Assembly: GCA_963708075.1 (NCBI GenBank)
Contig: OY970194.1
Coordinates: 1,824,001-1,888,000 of the forward strand
Length of the DNA stretch: 64,000 nucleotides
Source: Sedimentisphaerales bacterium
GTDB taxonomy: Bacteria > Planctomycetota > Phycisphaerae > Sedimentisphaerales > Anaerobacaceae
Direction: 5' to 3'
Shown here one piece after another: positions 58,667 to 64,000 of this stretch. Position 1 is the stretch's first letter; every line of letters starts with the position of its first letter. The notes below the pieces were generated by a model. That model saw only the letters and a program-made list of their open reading frames with translations, ran no database searches and was not told the DNA's origin. A program made the position numbers and the translations under genes.

Positions 58667-58980
58667 GATGTTCTCTCCTTTCCCCCGGCTCAATTCTGAG
58701 ACACCGGGGTGTCCGCGTACACTGACGTGGCCCTTCATGTTTTCCTGTTGCTGATCATAGCCATTCGCCTGCATGAGGATATAGGGAAAAGGATTGCCCG
58801 GCCTGCCATGCAAAGCCACTTTGCGACCATGATTAGGAATAGGGCCGGTTTGCATGGGCGGGTATAATCCCTCCAAAAGATTTTTGTCTTTCCGCGCTCA
58901 TTTGGGGCGCGGGGGTACACATATATACGAAAGCTGACGCTGATATCAGCACACCGGTGAGAAGCAGCAAGGTTTGACAC

Positions 58981-59586
58981 ATGAGAATCGAGTCTCTGGA
59001 ACAGAGTGATGCGGTTTTGGTCGAGGCGGCCCAGCAAGGCCGGCTGGACAGCTTCGGCGCTCTTTACCAACGGTATCACAACCCCATTGTGGCCCTGGCG
59101 TACGCCCAGTTGGGCGACAAGCACTCGGCGGAAGATGCGGCACAAGAGGCTTTCGCCATCGCCTGCCGGGACCTGCGGTCGCTGCGGGACCGGGACAAGT
59201 TCGGGGCCTGGCTCGGCGGCATCTGTCGCAATGTGACAAAGCAGATGCTGCGAATCAAGACCCGAACCGCCCCCCTGCCGTGTAGCCCAGCGGCCCCCGG
59301 CTGGGTATCCGACGGGATCACCCCCGAGGGCGGGGGTGCTACAGGGTTGGGCCACGTGGAGCGGGAAGAGCAGTGGGACGCCGTGCGAAAGGCCGTATGG
59401 AAGCTGCCGGAAGCCGAGCGGGAACTGGTCGTGATGAGATACTTCAACGGGTTCTCACAAGCCAAGATCTCCCAGGTGCTGGATATGACCCCGGCGGCAG
59501 TCAACGGCCGGCTCACACGGGCAAAGCGTAGAATCGCAGAGTTGCTGGAACGTGATGGTTTCGGGAGTGAATCATGGGACGCGTAA
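58981..59586 (+). CDS. ECF RNA polymerase sigma factor (with in-frame REP insert)
   Basis: AEDAAQEAF, FGAWLGGICRN; sigma4 LPEAERELV...VNGRLTRAK. Confidence 0.92.
   Translation: MRIESLEQSDAVLVEAAQQGRLDSFGALYQRYHNPIVALAYAQLGDKHSAEDAAQEAFAIACRDLRSLRDRDKFGAWLGGICRNVTKQMLRIKTRTAPLPCSPAAPGWVSDGITPEGGGATGLGHVEREEQWDAVRKAVWKLPEAERELVVMRYFNGFSQAKISQVLDMTPAAVNGRLTRAKRRIAELLERDGFGSESWDA
59281..59343. repeat. Inverted GTAG-type REP doublet inside the ECF gene
   Basis: GTAG-CCCAGC...GCTGGG on the plus strand and GTAG-CACCCCCG-CCCT-CGGGGGTG on the minus strand; 63 bp = 21 codons. Confidence 0.75.
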
Positions 59587-60674
59587 ATGACGACAAATGG
59601 CTGGAAGAGGTATTGAACAAGGCCATCCACTCGGACGACACGCGACCCGACTTCGAGAAGTGGAAGGCGAGTCACCCCGAGGCCGTGGAGATGCTCACCT
59701 CGCGGACGCCGCAAATGCAGCGGCCGCATGTGATATGGAGAATGATCATGAACGCTACACTAGTGAAACTCGCGGCCGCCGCCGTGATTGTCATCGCAGC
59801 CATTGTCGGAATCGCCAAATTCACTCACAACCCCACGAACAATCCGGCCATTATCTCCGATGTCCTCGTGGACGCCAGTCAAAAGATCGTGGGGCCGGCG
59901 ACACACACGTTCGCCGACGGATCCGGCGTCAAGCTGGCTGAGGGCGCAAGCATCCGCGTCTTCCCCCCGGAATCACGGGCCGTACGAGGCTTCGAGCACG
60001 TCGCCGGCCGAATTGAAGTCACCGTCGCCAAGGGCAAAAGCGAGTTCGTCGTCAACAGCCGCTATGGCGACGTGAAGGCCCTCGGCACGCAGTTCACGAT
60101 GGACGTGATGGATGAGGTCGCCGCCAACACGAAAGAACGCGTGCGGTTGCTCGCCGTCAAGGTGACGGAAGGTTCCGTTGAAGTTCGCAGCCGCAAGGGG
60201 ATCACGACTCTGACCGAGAATCAGGACATCATCGTGGTGGCCAATGCCGCCCCGTACGACTTCAACAAGGATGAGAAGCTGCCGAAGGAGCTCAGGGCCC
60301 GGATTCAGTCGATGATCGACGCCCTGAAGGCCAAAGACGGCGCCGCCTGGGTCGCCAACTACAACCTGCCCTATCTGTACAAACTCGCCAAGGGCCAGGT
60401 CGCCTATGATCCGAACCTCTTCGGCGGGACCGCCGAGGATGCCCAGAACTTCCAGAAAGGACTCGGCAATGTCGCCAGTGCTGAGGAACTGGGCAAGATC
60501 GTGGCGTCGAGCCTCAACAGTGACGGCGGCGACATTTACATCACCGCGATCACGATAAGCAAGGCCGGCGACCATGCCATTGCCAAGTGCGTCAGTAAGA
60601 ACGGGAATCGCACGGTCGTCCACAGCCCCCAGTGGCACGACTTCGGCGGCGGCTGGTGGCAGATCGACGACTGA
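59574..60674 (+). CDS. Anti-sigma factor with TM helix and FecR-like domain
   Basis: Overlaps the sigma stop; TM helix; FADGSGVKL, VKALGTQF, VTEGSVEV. Confidence 0.85.
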   Translation: MGRVNDDKWLEEVLNKAIHSDDTRPDFEKWKASHPEAVEMLTSRTPQMQRPHVIWRMIMNATLVKLAAAAVIVIAAIVGIAKFTHNPTNNPAIISDVLVDASQKIVGPATHTFADGSGVKLAEGASIRVFPPESRAVRGFEHVAGRIEVTVAKGKSEFVVNSRYGDVKALGTQFTMDVMDEVAANTKERVRLLAVKVTEGSVEVRSRKGITTLTENQDIIVVANAAPYDFNKDEKLPKELRARIQSMIDALKAKDGAAWVANYNLPYLYKLAKGQVAYDPNLFGGTAEDAQNFQKGLGNVASAEELGKIVASSLNSDGGDIYITAITISKAGDHAIAKCVSKNGNRTVVHSPQWHDFGGGWWQIDD

Positions 60675-60700
60675 TCGTCGCCGTGTACAATCGAGTCTCC

Positions 60701-60731
60701 GAGCCGGGCTTCTCTCAAGCCCGGCTTTTTT
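60701..60731 (+). terminator. Intrinsic terminator
   Basis: GAGCCGGGCTT/AAGCCCGGCTT hairpin plus T-tract. Confidence 0.85.
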
Positions 60732-60838
60732 GTTGCGCCCGCTCCATGCGGGAATCGTTCCCGCCCTGGGAAAACAAAATGCAACTTTCTGAGGTCTCGT
60801 GCATTATGATAGGTGAAGACTGACTCCGGAGCAGTGCG

Positions 60839-61441
60839 ATGGCTGACGACGCGGTAGAGTGCAGCTTGGAATCCAGGACTGAGATGCTCGACGAGGACCA
60901 GACGCTGGTCTCTGCGGCCCGTCAGGACACAGAGGCGGCGGGCCGGCTCTACGACAAGTATTACGGCGAGATCCTTGGCTATATCTACCATTGCACGCTC
61001 AATCGCACAGTGACTGAGGACCTCACGTCGAACGTCTTTCTGGCAGCCTTCCGGCACCTGGATCGCTACAGATGGCAGCAGATTTCCTTCCGGCCGTGGC
61101 TGTACCGGATCGCCACGAACGAGGTGCGGATGCACTACCGCAGGCACAAGCGAATCCGGTCCGTCAGTCTTCAGCCGGAGCATGAGGCCCTCGCCGCTCC
61201 CGCGCCGCCGGATGGCGAAGGGCCGGCGGCCGAGGAAGAGTTTCGCCTGGTGCACAAGGCGCTGCTGCAACTGCGACTGAAGTATCGCACGGCGATCATC
61301 CTGCGGTACTTCGAGGACAAGACAATCGCCGAAATCGCGACGATCACCGGCAATAGAGAAGGCACGATCCGATCCCATCTGCACCGCGGGCTGGCCCAGT
61401 TACAGGAGATCCTGGTGCGTTGGGGCGTTCTGCCGGACTGA
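60839..61441 (+). CDS. ECF RNA polymerase sigma factor
   Basis: EDLTSNVF, WLYRIATN, IAEIA...TIRSHLHRG. Confidence 0.92.
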   Translation: MADDAVECSLESRTEMLDEDQTLVSAARQDTEAAGRLYDKYYGEILGYIYHCTLNRTVTEDLTSNVFLAAFRHLDRYRWQQISFRPWLYRIATNEVRMHYRRHKRIRSVSLQPEHEALAAPAPPDGEGPAAEEEFRLVHKALLQLRLKYRTAIILRYFEDKTIAEIATITGNREGTIRSHLHRGLAQLQEILVRWGVLPD

Positions 61442-61456
61442 AACAGGAACGAAACC

Positions 61457-62596
61457 ATGGACAACAACATCGAGAGAATTGAGCGGTACCTGGAGGGCAT
61501 TGTCCCGCCGGTGCATGAATCCGATCGGCATCGCCAACAGTTGCGCCGGCAGGTCCTCACGGGACTCGCAAGGAGAGTTCTTATGCCTGTGAATGCAAGA
61601 ACATGGAAAGTGGCCGCGGTCATTGCTGCCCTGGTGTGCACCGCCGCCGCGGCAACAGCCGTGGTCGGTGTGAAGATTCGTCAATACTATTTCGAGGGAC
61701 AGGACAAGGAGGGTACCTATTTCTTCCGCAGCGAGCCGGAGGCCATCCATGAGAAGACCTATGTGGACGCGAACGGTGTCACGGTGGGTGTGTCCGTGAC
61801 ATCAGGTGGCTCCGTCAGCATGAGGCCGGACAGTCCCGATGAAGCGAACGTCGAGCAGATGCAACGGGATCTGGCGGAAATCGAGATCCTGCGGCAGCAG
61901 GATGCCAGGGAACTGGTGGGCGTCCGTGACGTGAGCGTGAACGGCAACCCATGGAGGGTGTTCACGTTCAAGTACGTGCTTGCCGGCGGCCGGATTCATA
62001 CGGTGAATGAAGCCGACCCCGATGCAGAAAAGCCCGCGCCGCCCGACCAGAAGGACTTCGAGGAGGCCGCGCGTCAGCGAGCCCAGGGCATCAGGGACAT
62101 CGTCGGGGTGATCGACACGGAGGTCGATGGCCAGATGCATCGCACGCTGCAATGCCGGTACGTGCTCAGTGACGGCCGGGAGTTCGAGATGGGCGAGGCG
62201 GACTCCGCCCTGACGCCGCCGACGAAGACACTGAGCCCAGAGCAAATCGATGAGATCTGGCGTCTGAAAATACTGGGCCAGGCGGAGACCCTTGAGCCCG
62301 TCGAGACAGCCATGTACGGCAAGACCTTCGTCTTCGAAAGACACCTGTGCACGCTCGCCGATGGAACAGTCGCAACGCTCTCCGTCGGCAAACTCAAGGG
62401 CGCCGGCAAGAAGAACCTGACCGACGCGGATTGGAAGGAACTGCGTGCCCTCATCGACGCCAACGCCGGTGAATTCCTCGACACCTATGAGCAGGAGATC
62501 AGAGGCAAGGTCTTCGCCTTCGAGCGCAAGCGTTACACTCTGAGCGACGGCACCGAGGTCATCCGGGCCGACGGCACACCCAAAGACAGCCAATAA
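61457..62596 (+). CDS. Putative anti-sigma factor with repeated extracytoplasmic modules
   Basis: Directly after the ECF gene; short N-domain, TM helix, four Y/CxLxxG repeats. Confidence 0.7.
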   Translation: MDNNIERIERYLEGIVPPVHESDRHRQQLRRQVLTGLARRVLMPVNARTWKVAAVIAALVCTAAAATAVVGVKIRQYYFEGQDKEGTYFFRSEPEAIHEKTYVDANGVTVGVSVTSGGSVSMRPDSPDEANVEQMQRDLAEIEILRQQDARELVGVRDVSVNGNPWRVFTFKYVLAGGRIHTVNEADPDAEKPAPPDQKDFEEAARQRAQGIRDIVGVIDTEVDGQMHRTLQCRYVLSDGREFEMGEADSALTPPTKTLSPEQIDEIWRLKILGQAETLEPVETAMYGKTFVFERHLCTLADGTVATLSVGKLKGAGKKNLTDADWKELRALIDANAGEFLDTYEQEIRGKVFAFERKRYTLSDGTEVIRADGTPKDSQ

Positions 62597-62614
62597 ACCC
62601 ATTCCCGAGCGACC

Positions 62615-62655
62615 AGCGAGAGCGGCCATAGCGGAGGTCGCTCTCGCTTTCTTGT
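62615..62655 (+). terminator. Probable intrinsic terminator
   Basis: AGCGAGAGCGGCC/GGTCGCTCTCGCT hairpin then TTCTTGT. Confidence 0.65.
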
Positions 62656-62791
62656 TCTTGCCCCGCCCCTTTTCTCATCGCGAGCTCGCTCTTCCTCTCA
62701 AGAATCTGAAGAATTCCTGTGCCCCAGGCGGGTGTTCATTCGTGATAATAGGGAACAACGATCGTTGTGATGAGAGTAATGGCGTCCGCGA

Positions 62792-63328
62792 ATGATCGAA
62801 GATGAGCTGCTCAAACTGAGATTCAAGGCCGGCAGCATAGACGCGCTGCAGCGGATCTATGAGAAGTACCGCGACTACCTGCTGACGCTGGCGATGGCGT
62901 TGTTGAATGACGCCGCCACGGCCGAGGACGTCGTGCACGATGTGTTCGTCTCCTTCGCGCAGTCCGGCTCACGGTTCCGTCTCTACGGCAGCCTGCGGGC
63001 CTACCTGGCCACCTGCGTGGTCAACCGGATCCGCGACCGGATGCGCAGCCGCAAGCGCCAAGGGCAGACGCTCGACGAACAGATGCCTCTGGAGTCGGAC
63101 TTCGATCCGCCGGACCAGCGTGTCCTGTCCGACGAGCGGTCCCGGCTGGTCGCCCGGGCCCTGGCCCGACTGCCGGACGAGCAGCGGGAAGTCATCGCCC
63201 TGCACCTGAACGGGCAACTGAAGCTCCGGGAAATCGCGCGGCTTCAGGAGGTGCCGCTGACAACGGTGCGCGGCAGGTATCGACATGGAATCGAAAGACT
63301 GCGGTCAATCCTGAATGGGAGGCTCTGA
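62792..63328 (+). CDS. ECF RNA polymerase sigma factor
   Basis: AEDVVHDVF, YLATCVVN, LPDEQREV, TVRGRYRHG. Confidence 0.92.
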   Translation: MIEDELLKLRFKAGSIDALQRIYEKYRDYLLTLAMALLNDAATAEDVVHDVFVSFAQSGSRFRLYGSLRAYLATCVVNRIRDRMRSRKRQGQTLDEQMPLESDFDPPDQRVLSDERSRLVARALARLPDEQREVIALHLNGQLKLREIARLQEVPLTTVRGRYRHGIERLRSILNGRL

Positions 63329-63329
63329 C

Positions 63330-64000
63330 ATGAAACCGGCAGAGGAGATAGAGAGGATCATCAGAGGAATGTCCTTCCGGGCAGGCGATCGAATGGGGCA
63401 GCGACTCTGGGCTGATGCCGCGAAGGCACAGAATGAGTCCGAAAGCGCGAAACGGGTCCCAGACCCGAAGAATACAGGGAGATGGATTATGAAATATCCG
63501 ATCACGAAATTGGCCGCCGCGGCAGCCATAATAACAGCAGCAGTGCTGGGCTTGAACATTGTGGGTGGGCCGGGCATGGCAACCGTTGCGCTGGCGGACG
63601 TAGCAAAGAAGATTGAACAAACAAAGAACTGTGTCTTCAAAAAGACTACAACCGTGTCCTCTGAAGATGGCGTCACTAACGCATTCGATTCACTGGTATA
63701 TTATACCGAAAACGCCGTGAGGGATGATGTCTACGACAATGCGAAGATAATCAGTCAGGTGTATGTCAAATTCCCGGATGGGGTCGTCGTCGCGGTAGAC
63801 CACAAAAGCAGAGTATTCAGGAAGATAAACCTCGCGGATGAGGATATTGAGAGACTGTCTCCGGTAAGCCCAAGGAATCTTGTCGATCTGATCCTGTCAA
63901 AAGGAGAGTACAAGAAGCTGGGCAGAAAGACGGTGGACGGAGTTCTTTCAGAAGGCTTCGAATTTGACGACACAAGAGCAATGCTCAGCATGGATAAAGA
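63330..64000 (+). CDS. Putative anti-sigma factor, 5' part (runs off the window edge)
   Basis: Hand-translated: MKPAEEIERII...GRWIMKYPITKLAAAAAIITAAVLGL...ALADVAKKIEQ; starts 1 nt after the sigma stop with GGGAGG SD. Confidence 0.8.
   Translation, partial: MKPAEEIERIIRGMSFRAGDRMGQRLWADAAKAQNESESAKRVPDPKNTGRWIMKYPITKLAAAAAIITAAVLGLNIVGGPGMATVALADVAKKIEQTKNCVFKKTTTVSSEDGVTNAFDSLVYYTENAVRDDVYDNAKIISQVYVKFPDGVVVAVDHKSRVFRKINLADEDIERLSPVSPRNLVDLILSKGEYKKLGRKTVDGVLSEGFEFDDTRAMLSMDK

Follow-up and report, generated by a model that had tools for sequence, protein, structure and literature searches.

Three anti-sigma factor genes near the 3' end of a 64,000-nucleotide stretch of DNA from a Sedimentisphaerales bacterium (hereafter the window; contig OY970194.1, positions 1,824,001 to 1,888,000, assembly GCA_963708075.1) each carry an internal signal that resembles a translation start, namely a Shine-Dalgarno (SD)-like GGAG followed at a spacing of 7 nt by an in-frame ATG. 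Judged from comparative sequence evidence, this GGAG-N7-ATG is selected at the DNA level, because its codons are constrained, it is conserved across genomes and its surroundings are start-like. Its geometry is that of the genome's own start sites and is conserved across an order of Phycisphaerae. We put the probability that ribosomes initiate at the internal site, giving a protein that would lack the sigma-binding domain, at roughly 0.7. Each gene would then probably make both a full regulator and a shorter, sensor-only protein. The three sites are as follows.

59737..59750, forward strand: internal GGAG-N7-ATG of anti-sigma gene 1, TGG AGA ATG ATC ATG (GGAG at 59737-40, ATG at 59748-50, Met codon 59)
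61571..61585, forward strand: internal AGGAG-N7-ATG of anti-sigma gene 2, AGG AGA GTT CTT ATG (AGGAG at 61571-75, ATG at 61583-85, Met codon 43)
63477..63491, forward strand: internal GGGAG-N7-ATG of anti-sigma gene 3, GGG AGA TGG ATT ATG (GGGAG at 63477-81, ATG at 63489-91, Met codon 54)

In all three genes the internal Met is followed by a basic stretch and then by a hydrophobic stretch. Reading the sequence directly, we found the SD and ATG positions and the 7-nt spacer to be as given in a preliminary description of the window. The same description held the genes to be otherwise dissimilar, which is wrong: a block of about 40 residues, comprising the juxtamembrane and transmembrane (TM) region, is common to them and to 23 further paralogues. 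Gene 1 has a second in-frame ATG at 59742 (codon 57), 1 nt past the GGAG, so that codon 59 alone stands at the 7-nt spacing. Two further loci, L013 and L125, also have an extra ATG one or two codons ahead of the conserved one.

Codon choice and conservation at the internal site

The chance expectation was obtained by counting GGAG at each spacing upstream of in-frame ATGs in open reading frames (ORFs) of at least 300 aa. In the distal 60% of ORFs, GGAG at spacer 7 preceded only 40 of 26,201 in-frame ATGs (0.15%), and the occurrence of internal GGAG-N7-ATG in the three genes is far beyond chance. Among ATGs in the first quarter of ORFs the figure was 328 of 13,612 (2.4%), which is the peak of the distribution, with spacers 6, 8 and 9 next. 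The 16S rRNA tail reads CACCTCCTTTCT (fuller end ...GGATCACCTCCTTTCTAGG). This tail and the spacing peak at start sites indicate a canonical anti-SD that is put to use at 7-nt spacing. For an internal site to be in frame at this spacing, the codon pair xGG-AGx is required.

A genome-wide profile search yielded 91 sigma-70-family ORFs. A profile of the juxtamembrane block matched 27 ORFs, of which 26 were kept after L026 (-_3054781) was dropped for its hidden Markov model (HMM) E value of 0.0015 and lack of the motif; L054 was likewise rejected as a family member, its match beginning downstream of the motif. For a further profile, A1, 22 of these 27 loci served, with L019, L020, L025, L026 and L027 set aside for register or weak fit. 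All 26 paralogues lie directly 3' of a co-oriented sigma-70-family ORF, with 5' starts at most 17 nt from the sigma stop and, in about ten of them, an ATGA overlap with that stop. The distance from sigma stop to internal Met is 133-306 nt. They have in common the block [W/G/R]-R-x-x-M-x-S-x-x-x-K-L-A-A-A-A-V and little else. Their outer domains are FecR, PDZ, TPR, DUF2092, DUF1571 or none assigned, and their N-termini contain a zf-HC2 domain above the Pfam cut-off in three of 26 (L009, L016 and L027), the others having a segment of about 50 aa without a Pfam match. Since the block is common to 26 genes, the three window genes are paralogues in this block rather than independent inventions of the signal. 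GGAG stands 7 nt ahead of ATG in 22 of the 26.

The codons at the site are strongly biased. AGA, which the preliminary description had called rare, makes up 4.6% of Arg codons (AGG 8.2%) in 3,031 long ORFs of this genome. Own-genome codons were tallied from a hand-anchored table, the automatic alignment having had register trouble at L019 and L025. Three codons before the internal Met (site -3), the 26 paralogues have AGA 19 times, AGG three times, CGG twice, and AGT and ACC once each. The comparison of AGA with CGN codons that the preliminary description had proposed thus shows AGA or AGG (AGR) in 22 of the 24 paralogues with Arg at this site, against 22.5% elsewhere in the same 26 genes (binomial P 1e-12); for AGA alone, 9.8% of Arg codons elsewhere in these genes, P is 2e-15. 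Arg codon usage at the site thus departs from the background, whereas a match with it would have counted against the proposal. At site -4 the codons are TGG (13), GGG (8) and AGG (5), so that NGG is present in all 26 even though Trp, Gly and Arg are unlike. Gly at -4 is GGG in 8/8 compared with 19.5% elsewhere (P 2e-6), and Arg at -4 is AGG in 5/5. Meanwhile, the conserved Ala columns of the TM segment use GCC, GCG, GCA and GCT, and the Leu column uses CTT, CTC, CTG, TTG and TTA; because these neighbouring synonymous sites are scrambled, AGA has not merely been inherited.

A purely protein-level motif, [W/G/R]-R-x-x-M, combined with a preference for rare codons near signal-like sequences, might be proposed instead. 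Arg and Met are indeed nearly invariant in the alignments, Arg stays as CGG in two paralogues (L022 and L023), and non-optimal codon bias is known in signal sequences. The residues at -4, however, are chemically unlike and have only NGG in common, and Gly there is GGG in every case though GGG is not the rarest Gly codon. Where Ser or Glu replaces Arg, it does so solely through AGY (AGT or AGC) or GAG, preserving GGAG: Gly-Ser is GGG AGT, still spelling GGGAG, in L024 (this genome) and L068; Trp-Ser is TGG AGC in L094, L095 and L103; Arg-Ser is AGG AGT in L118; and Gly-Glu is GGA GAG in L040, with GGAG at 8 nt. We consider it very improbable that a protein motif is all there is to the block. 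The DNA-level constraint, with NGG always at -4 and GGAG kept through the Ser and Glu swaps, instead favours the proposal made earlier for this window that the xRxxM motif would be a conserved ribosome-binding site.

Of 31 genomes including the window's own, 27 have the block, among them 18/18 other members of the genus and 8/12 from other families of the order; in a sample of 201 genomes from the class the figure is 28, with the window's own counted here too. The named records of close homologues are metagenome-assembled genomes (MAGs) of Sedimentisphaerales, Phycisphaerae or Planctomycetota. We collected 94 non-redundant homologous sites from other genomes, 87 of which have a sigma gene at most 700 nt upstream. 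ATG is present in 80 of these 87, and of the 80, GGAG lies at 7 nt in 76, at 8 nt in one (L040), at 10 nt in one and is lacking in two. None of the seven ATG-less homologues (GTT, GTG, CTG in three, AAT and ATC) has GGAG, although these are low-scoring and five of them were placed by extrapolation. In the sigma-adjacent ATG homologues all 71 Arg codons at -3 are AGR (37/37, 23/23 and 11/11 by local GC stratum), compared with AGR shares of 21%, 24% and 37% in the same ORFs. All five homologues from other genomes that have Ser at -3 encode it by AGT or AGC. The profile cannot favour one synonymous codon over another because it was built on amino acids.

The surroundings of the site were analysed at 23 of the 27 loci, L022, L023, L026 and L027 being left out for want of GGAG. 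Local GC content at third codon positions (GC3), predicted folding and anti-SD pairing all resemble those of a true start. Codons -6 to +6 have a GC3 of 0.43, compared with 0.74 over the remainder of these genes (P 2e-24), and GC from -18 to +18 is 0.444 versus 0.594. Near the site Ser is AGY in 17/18, Ile is ATA in 12/34, Pro is CCA in 7/12 and Lys is AAA in 16/27, all far above their shares elsewhere, and this A/T-rich codon choice runs on 3' of the internal ATG. The predicted folding energy of 60 nt is weaker at the site (-11.6 vs -15.7 kcal/mol, P 1e-5). The SD/anti-SD duplex is as strong at the internal sites (-8.3 kcal/mol) as at the genes' own 5' starts (-8.4), while 208 other in-frame ATGs give -4.3.

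SD-like sequences have been proposed to act as elongation pauses. The GGAG could be such a pause ahead of the membrane segment, aiding targeting or the folding or binding of the sigma-binding domain, with Met kept for the protein's sake. GGAG does always lie immediately 5' of the TM-coding segment, one gene 3 orthologue (L128) has GGAG without ATG, and ribosome pausing is the subject of a review (PMC7829197). A pause, however, would not depend on how far away a start codon lies, or on there being one, yet 76 of the 80 ATG homologues show the modal start spacing, and the seven ATG-less homologues are without GGAG. Moreover, the A/T-rich codons that continue past the ATG and the weak local structure are those of starts, and at the pause position the TM segment would be yet unmade and thus not recognisable. 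We therefore regard pausing as an unlikely explanation.

Several observations weigh against internal initiation. Paralogue L027 has ATG without GGAG (TGG ACC GAG ATC ATG), as do L096 and L080, both sigma-adjacent, in other genomes, and in L022 and L023 the CGG Arg is accompanied by GTG in place of ATG. (L021, by comparison, keeps AGA and has GTG for ATG.) Because Arg stays in L022 and L023, Arg and Met are probably in part conserved at the protein level, for which the positive-inside rule offers a reason in the case of Arg. Among gene 3 orthologues, L128 (position 1654) keeps TGG AGA with ATA replacing the Met codon, and L129 (position 1510) has lost both GGAG (CTG AGA) and ATG (ACG). Synonymous conservation among nine gene 3 orthologues speaks for neither side: across 160 conserved columns the commonest codon has a mean share of 0.80, AGA is fixed at other Arg columns as well, and these relatives are AT-richer and unsaturated. 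The homologue profile came from motif-bearing members, so that motif-less ones (no W-R, M) are under-sampled, and kin are not independent. Trp-type sites pair just 4 nt (GGAG) with the anti-SD. Finally, ribosomes arriving from the 5' start could occlude the internal site.

The module junction and the predicted products

Homologues of gene 3 are 60-90% identical over the TM segment and outer domains and come in several lengths: 372 aa with a 53-aa N-terminus, 411-414 aa with zf-HC2, and 543-557 aa with a multi-TM N-terminus. Homologues of 319-323 aa are those for which public gene callers start at the internal Met (6/120 among the matches listed). All of the N-terminal modules join at the W-R-x-I-M block. 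In the close homologues P0025, P0045 and P0107 an N-terminal extension of about 225 aa with several hydrophobic segments takes the place of the 53-aa domain, and its opening segment, MDNxKKLSE..ADGIDP, is shared with paralogue L006 in the window's genome. In one MAG (L038:922-1888, minus strand), a frame change parts a zf-HC2 ORF from an ORF for the TM segment plus sensor, and the sole possible start of the latter is GGG AGA ACG ATC ATG; this could equally be a natural split gene or an assembly error.

The block lies exactly where the N-terminal modules of close orthologues differ, as would also be the case if it were the functionless relic of a ribosome-binding site that belonged to a once separate sensor gene and was carried along whenever the whole module was duplicated or exchanged. 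In the sigma-E operon of E. coli an RseB-like domain has a gene to itself, and the structural matches of gene 3 to RseB (below) fit such an origin. A relic would nevertheless be lost easily, AGA to CGA being one synonymous change, yet AGR persists in 22/24 paralogues in which other synonymous sites are scrambled and in 71/71 homologues from several families of the order and class, with GGG for Gly and AGY for Ser likewise kept. A relic thus seems distinctly improbable to us.

Under internal initiation, a second translation initiation region would lie where the cytoplasmic sigma-binding module gives way to the membrane segment. The 5' start, which abuts or overlaps the stop codon of the extracytoplasmic function (ECF) sigma factor gene, would yield the full anti-sigma factor. 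The internal start would yield an N-terminally truncated protein consisting only of the basic stretch, a signal-peptide-like segment and the extracytoplasmic sensor part.

Two results suggest that the lost N-terminus binds sigma: the zf-HC2 domain in three of 26 paralogues and a predicted complex for gene 3. In this model the N-terminal 50 aa of gene 3 lie between regions 2 and 4 of sigma factor 3 with a score of 0.79 (best of three controls, 0.00); at least 95% of contacts recur between runs, and the predicted local distance difference test score (pLDDT) of the partner is at least 74. The mark applied to the score is reached by 116 of 157 solved complexes and by 2 of 215 mismatched pairs, figures that are approximate as our own alignments were used. 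Since sigma/anti-sigma complexes are among the structures already solved, resemblance to them may account for part of this result.

In the whole-protein model of gene 3 (pLDDT 71.1, pTM 0.62), residues 1-83 are below 50 and the folded part begins at residue 88, where a LolA/RseB-like domain (about 88-270) precedes a PDZ domain (about 290-366). Foldseek matched LolA (2.7e-09 to 1e-08, TMt up to 0.66), RseB (2p4b, 3e-08) and the PDZ domains of DegP/DegS, and the modelled outer domain fits the LolA/RseB-like fold of an open beta-sheet with a helical plug. In the short product of gene 3 the sensor part would thus be these two domains, LolA/RseB-like and PDZ.

All members of the family have a basic stretch and then a hydrophobic core of 16-21 aa after the internal Met, and 16 of 26 have A-x-A 25-42 residues past it, directly before the folded domain. 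Because the core is long, it could equally be a TM helix, and the short product would be either inserted in the membrane or exported. One ORF rejected as a family member, L081 (973-1602, minus strand), encodes a Skp/OmpH-like protein with an ordinary signal peptide and stands beside BamA-like and LpxD-like ORFs; it matches the family profile weakly through that signal peptide, which shows that the TM block of the family is strongly signal-peptide-like.

The weakest step concerns what the short product would do. It may form a sigma-free pool of sensor domain, perhaps acting as a decoy or as an RseB-like partner that adjusts how the full-length protein is cleaved. RseB pairs with RseA, and the short form might similarly pair with its full-length sibling, or it might compete for the signal or for the site-1 protease. 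Tentatively, and at somewhat less than even odds, we suggest that in Sedimentisphaerales-like Phycisphaerae every member of a whole clade of ECF anti-sigma genes is two genes in one frame, that the free sensor modulates the full-length sibling, and that the start block serves as the breakpoint at which N-terminal modules are exchanged.

The three sigma/anti-sigma pairs and their surroundings

The window sits in a single 7.52-Mb contig of 60.4% GC, and its features in the region of interest are listed below.

58981..59586, forward strand: ECF sigma factor 1 (Pfam Sigma70_r2 2.2e-13, Sigma70_r4_2 5.1e-13)
59574..60674, forward strand: anti-sigma gene 1, ORF of 366 aa (Pfam FecR 1e-08 at residues 109-203)
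59769..59816, forward strand: hydrophobic TM or signal-like core of gene 1, LAAAAVIVIAAIVGIA (translation, hydropathy scan)
60701..60737, forward strand: terminator-like hairpin and T run 3' of gene 1 (11-pair stem, 7 GC pairs)
60839..61441, forward strand: ECF sigma factor 2 (Pfam Sigma70_r2 1.2e-14, r4_2 1e-14)
61457..62596, forward strand: anti-sigma gene 2, ORF of 379 aa (family HMM E 0.0013)
61610..61672, forward strand: hydrophobic TM core of gene 2, VAAVIAALVCTAAAATAVVGV (translation, hydropathy scan)
62615..62658, forward strand: terminator-like hairpin 3' of gene 2 (13-pair stem, 9 GC pairs)
62792..63328, forward strand: ECF sigma factor 3 (Pfam Sigma70_r2 2.9e-14, r4_2 6.7e-09)
63330..64000, forward strand, continuing past the window end: anti-sigma gene 3 (ORF, locus L002, with a Pfam PDZ match on L002)
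63510..63563, forward strand: hydrophobic TM or signal-like core of gene 3, LAAAAAIITAAVLGLNIV (translation), followed by VALA|DV directly before the folded domain

Gene 1 comprises an N-terminal part of 58 aa, a TM segment and a FecR domain; its 5' start overlaps the stop codon of sigma 1, with GGGAG 6 nt upstream of the ATG at 59574. Gene 2, for which a Pfam search gave nothing above the cut-off, is by its family HMM E value the most divergent member of the family. Gene 3 is 372 aa over its whole length, with an N-terminal part of 53 aa, a TM segment, a LolA/RseB-like domain and a PDZ domain, and GGGAGG lies upstream of its 5' ATG at 63330. None of the three has a Pfam-detectable anti-sigma domain, the N-terminus of each being a two-helix segment of about 50 aa. 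Each sigma/anti-sigma pair looks like its own operon because terminator-like hairpins close genes 1 and 2.

The three pairs open a run of six ECF sigma/anti-sigma pairs in about 16 kb (genome positions 1882980-1898385), with sigma ORF starts at 1882980, 1884838, 1886791, 1888804, 1894315 and 1896757. The internal GGAG-N7-ATG is present in five of the six pairs, the exception being the gene at 1894833 (L027), with ATG and no GGAG. A search of 58900-64000 against Rfam at E values up to 1 returned just chance-level matches to SorY (0.55) and sR2 (0.54). A crude promoter scan found one site, at 60664-60691, against 1.5 expected, and none inside the N-terminal coding parts; this sole promoter-like site lies at the 3' end of gene 1, across the stop codon.

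Significance and comparison with known systems

In the usual model, an ECF sigma/anti-sigma pair gives rise to a single sigma factor and a single anti-sigma protein in fixed proportion. If internal initiation takes place, dozens of genes per genome would also make a sensor isoform free of sigma, changing the stoichiometry, threshold and feedback of these pathways. Gene annotation would need revision as well, public callers being already split between the two starts. The block would also illustrate cleanly how an apparent protein 'motif' can in truth be a signal in the nucleic acid, one that codon choice by itself suffices to reveal, and its recurrence in 26 paralogues would make for an easily testable system.

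In-frame internal starts are already known, and what would be new here is anti-sigma genes as their carriers; we found no literature report of an internal start in an anti-sigma gene, in searches that covered few subscription journals. A preprint (10.1101/520783) describes in-frame internal starts in arcB, giving ArcB-C, and in rpn genes, with ArcB-C demonstrated by ribosome profiling and western blot. The likeness to arcB and rpn lies in an SD-like sequence and in-frame start at a domain boundary of a membrane signalling gene, kept in relatives, with an N-terminally truncated product. Unlike ArcB-C, the putative short product would retain the extracytoplasmic sensor together with its membrane or signal segment, and it would be without the cytoplasmic part that binds sigma. 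The site is moreover common to 26 paralogues of one genome and to relatives across the order, a setting that differs from what is described for arcB, and the evidence here is that of sequence comparison.

Among anti-sigma factors, the zf-HC2 (PF13490) single-pass proteins are similar in being encoded directly after the sigma gene and in having a cytoplasmic N-terminal domain, one TM segment and a variable outer domain, whereas the three window genes are without a Pfam-detectable anti-sigma domain. The E. coli rpoE-rseA-rseB system likewise combines an ECF sigma factor, a single-pass anti-sigma factor and a LolA-like periplasmic protein, with PDZ domains taking part in sensing. The RseB structures 2p4b, 2v42 and 3m4w matched gene 3 by Foldseek at identities of 8-17%, a likeness that is structural rather than at the sequence level. 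In contrast to rpoE-rseA-rseB, the RseB/LolA-like and PDZ domains here share the reading frame of the anti-sigma factor, and a separate product would be signalled only by the internal start.

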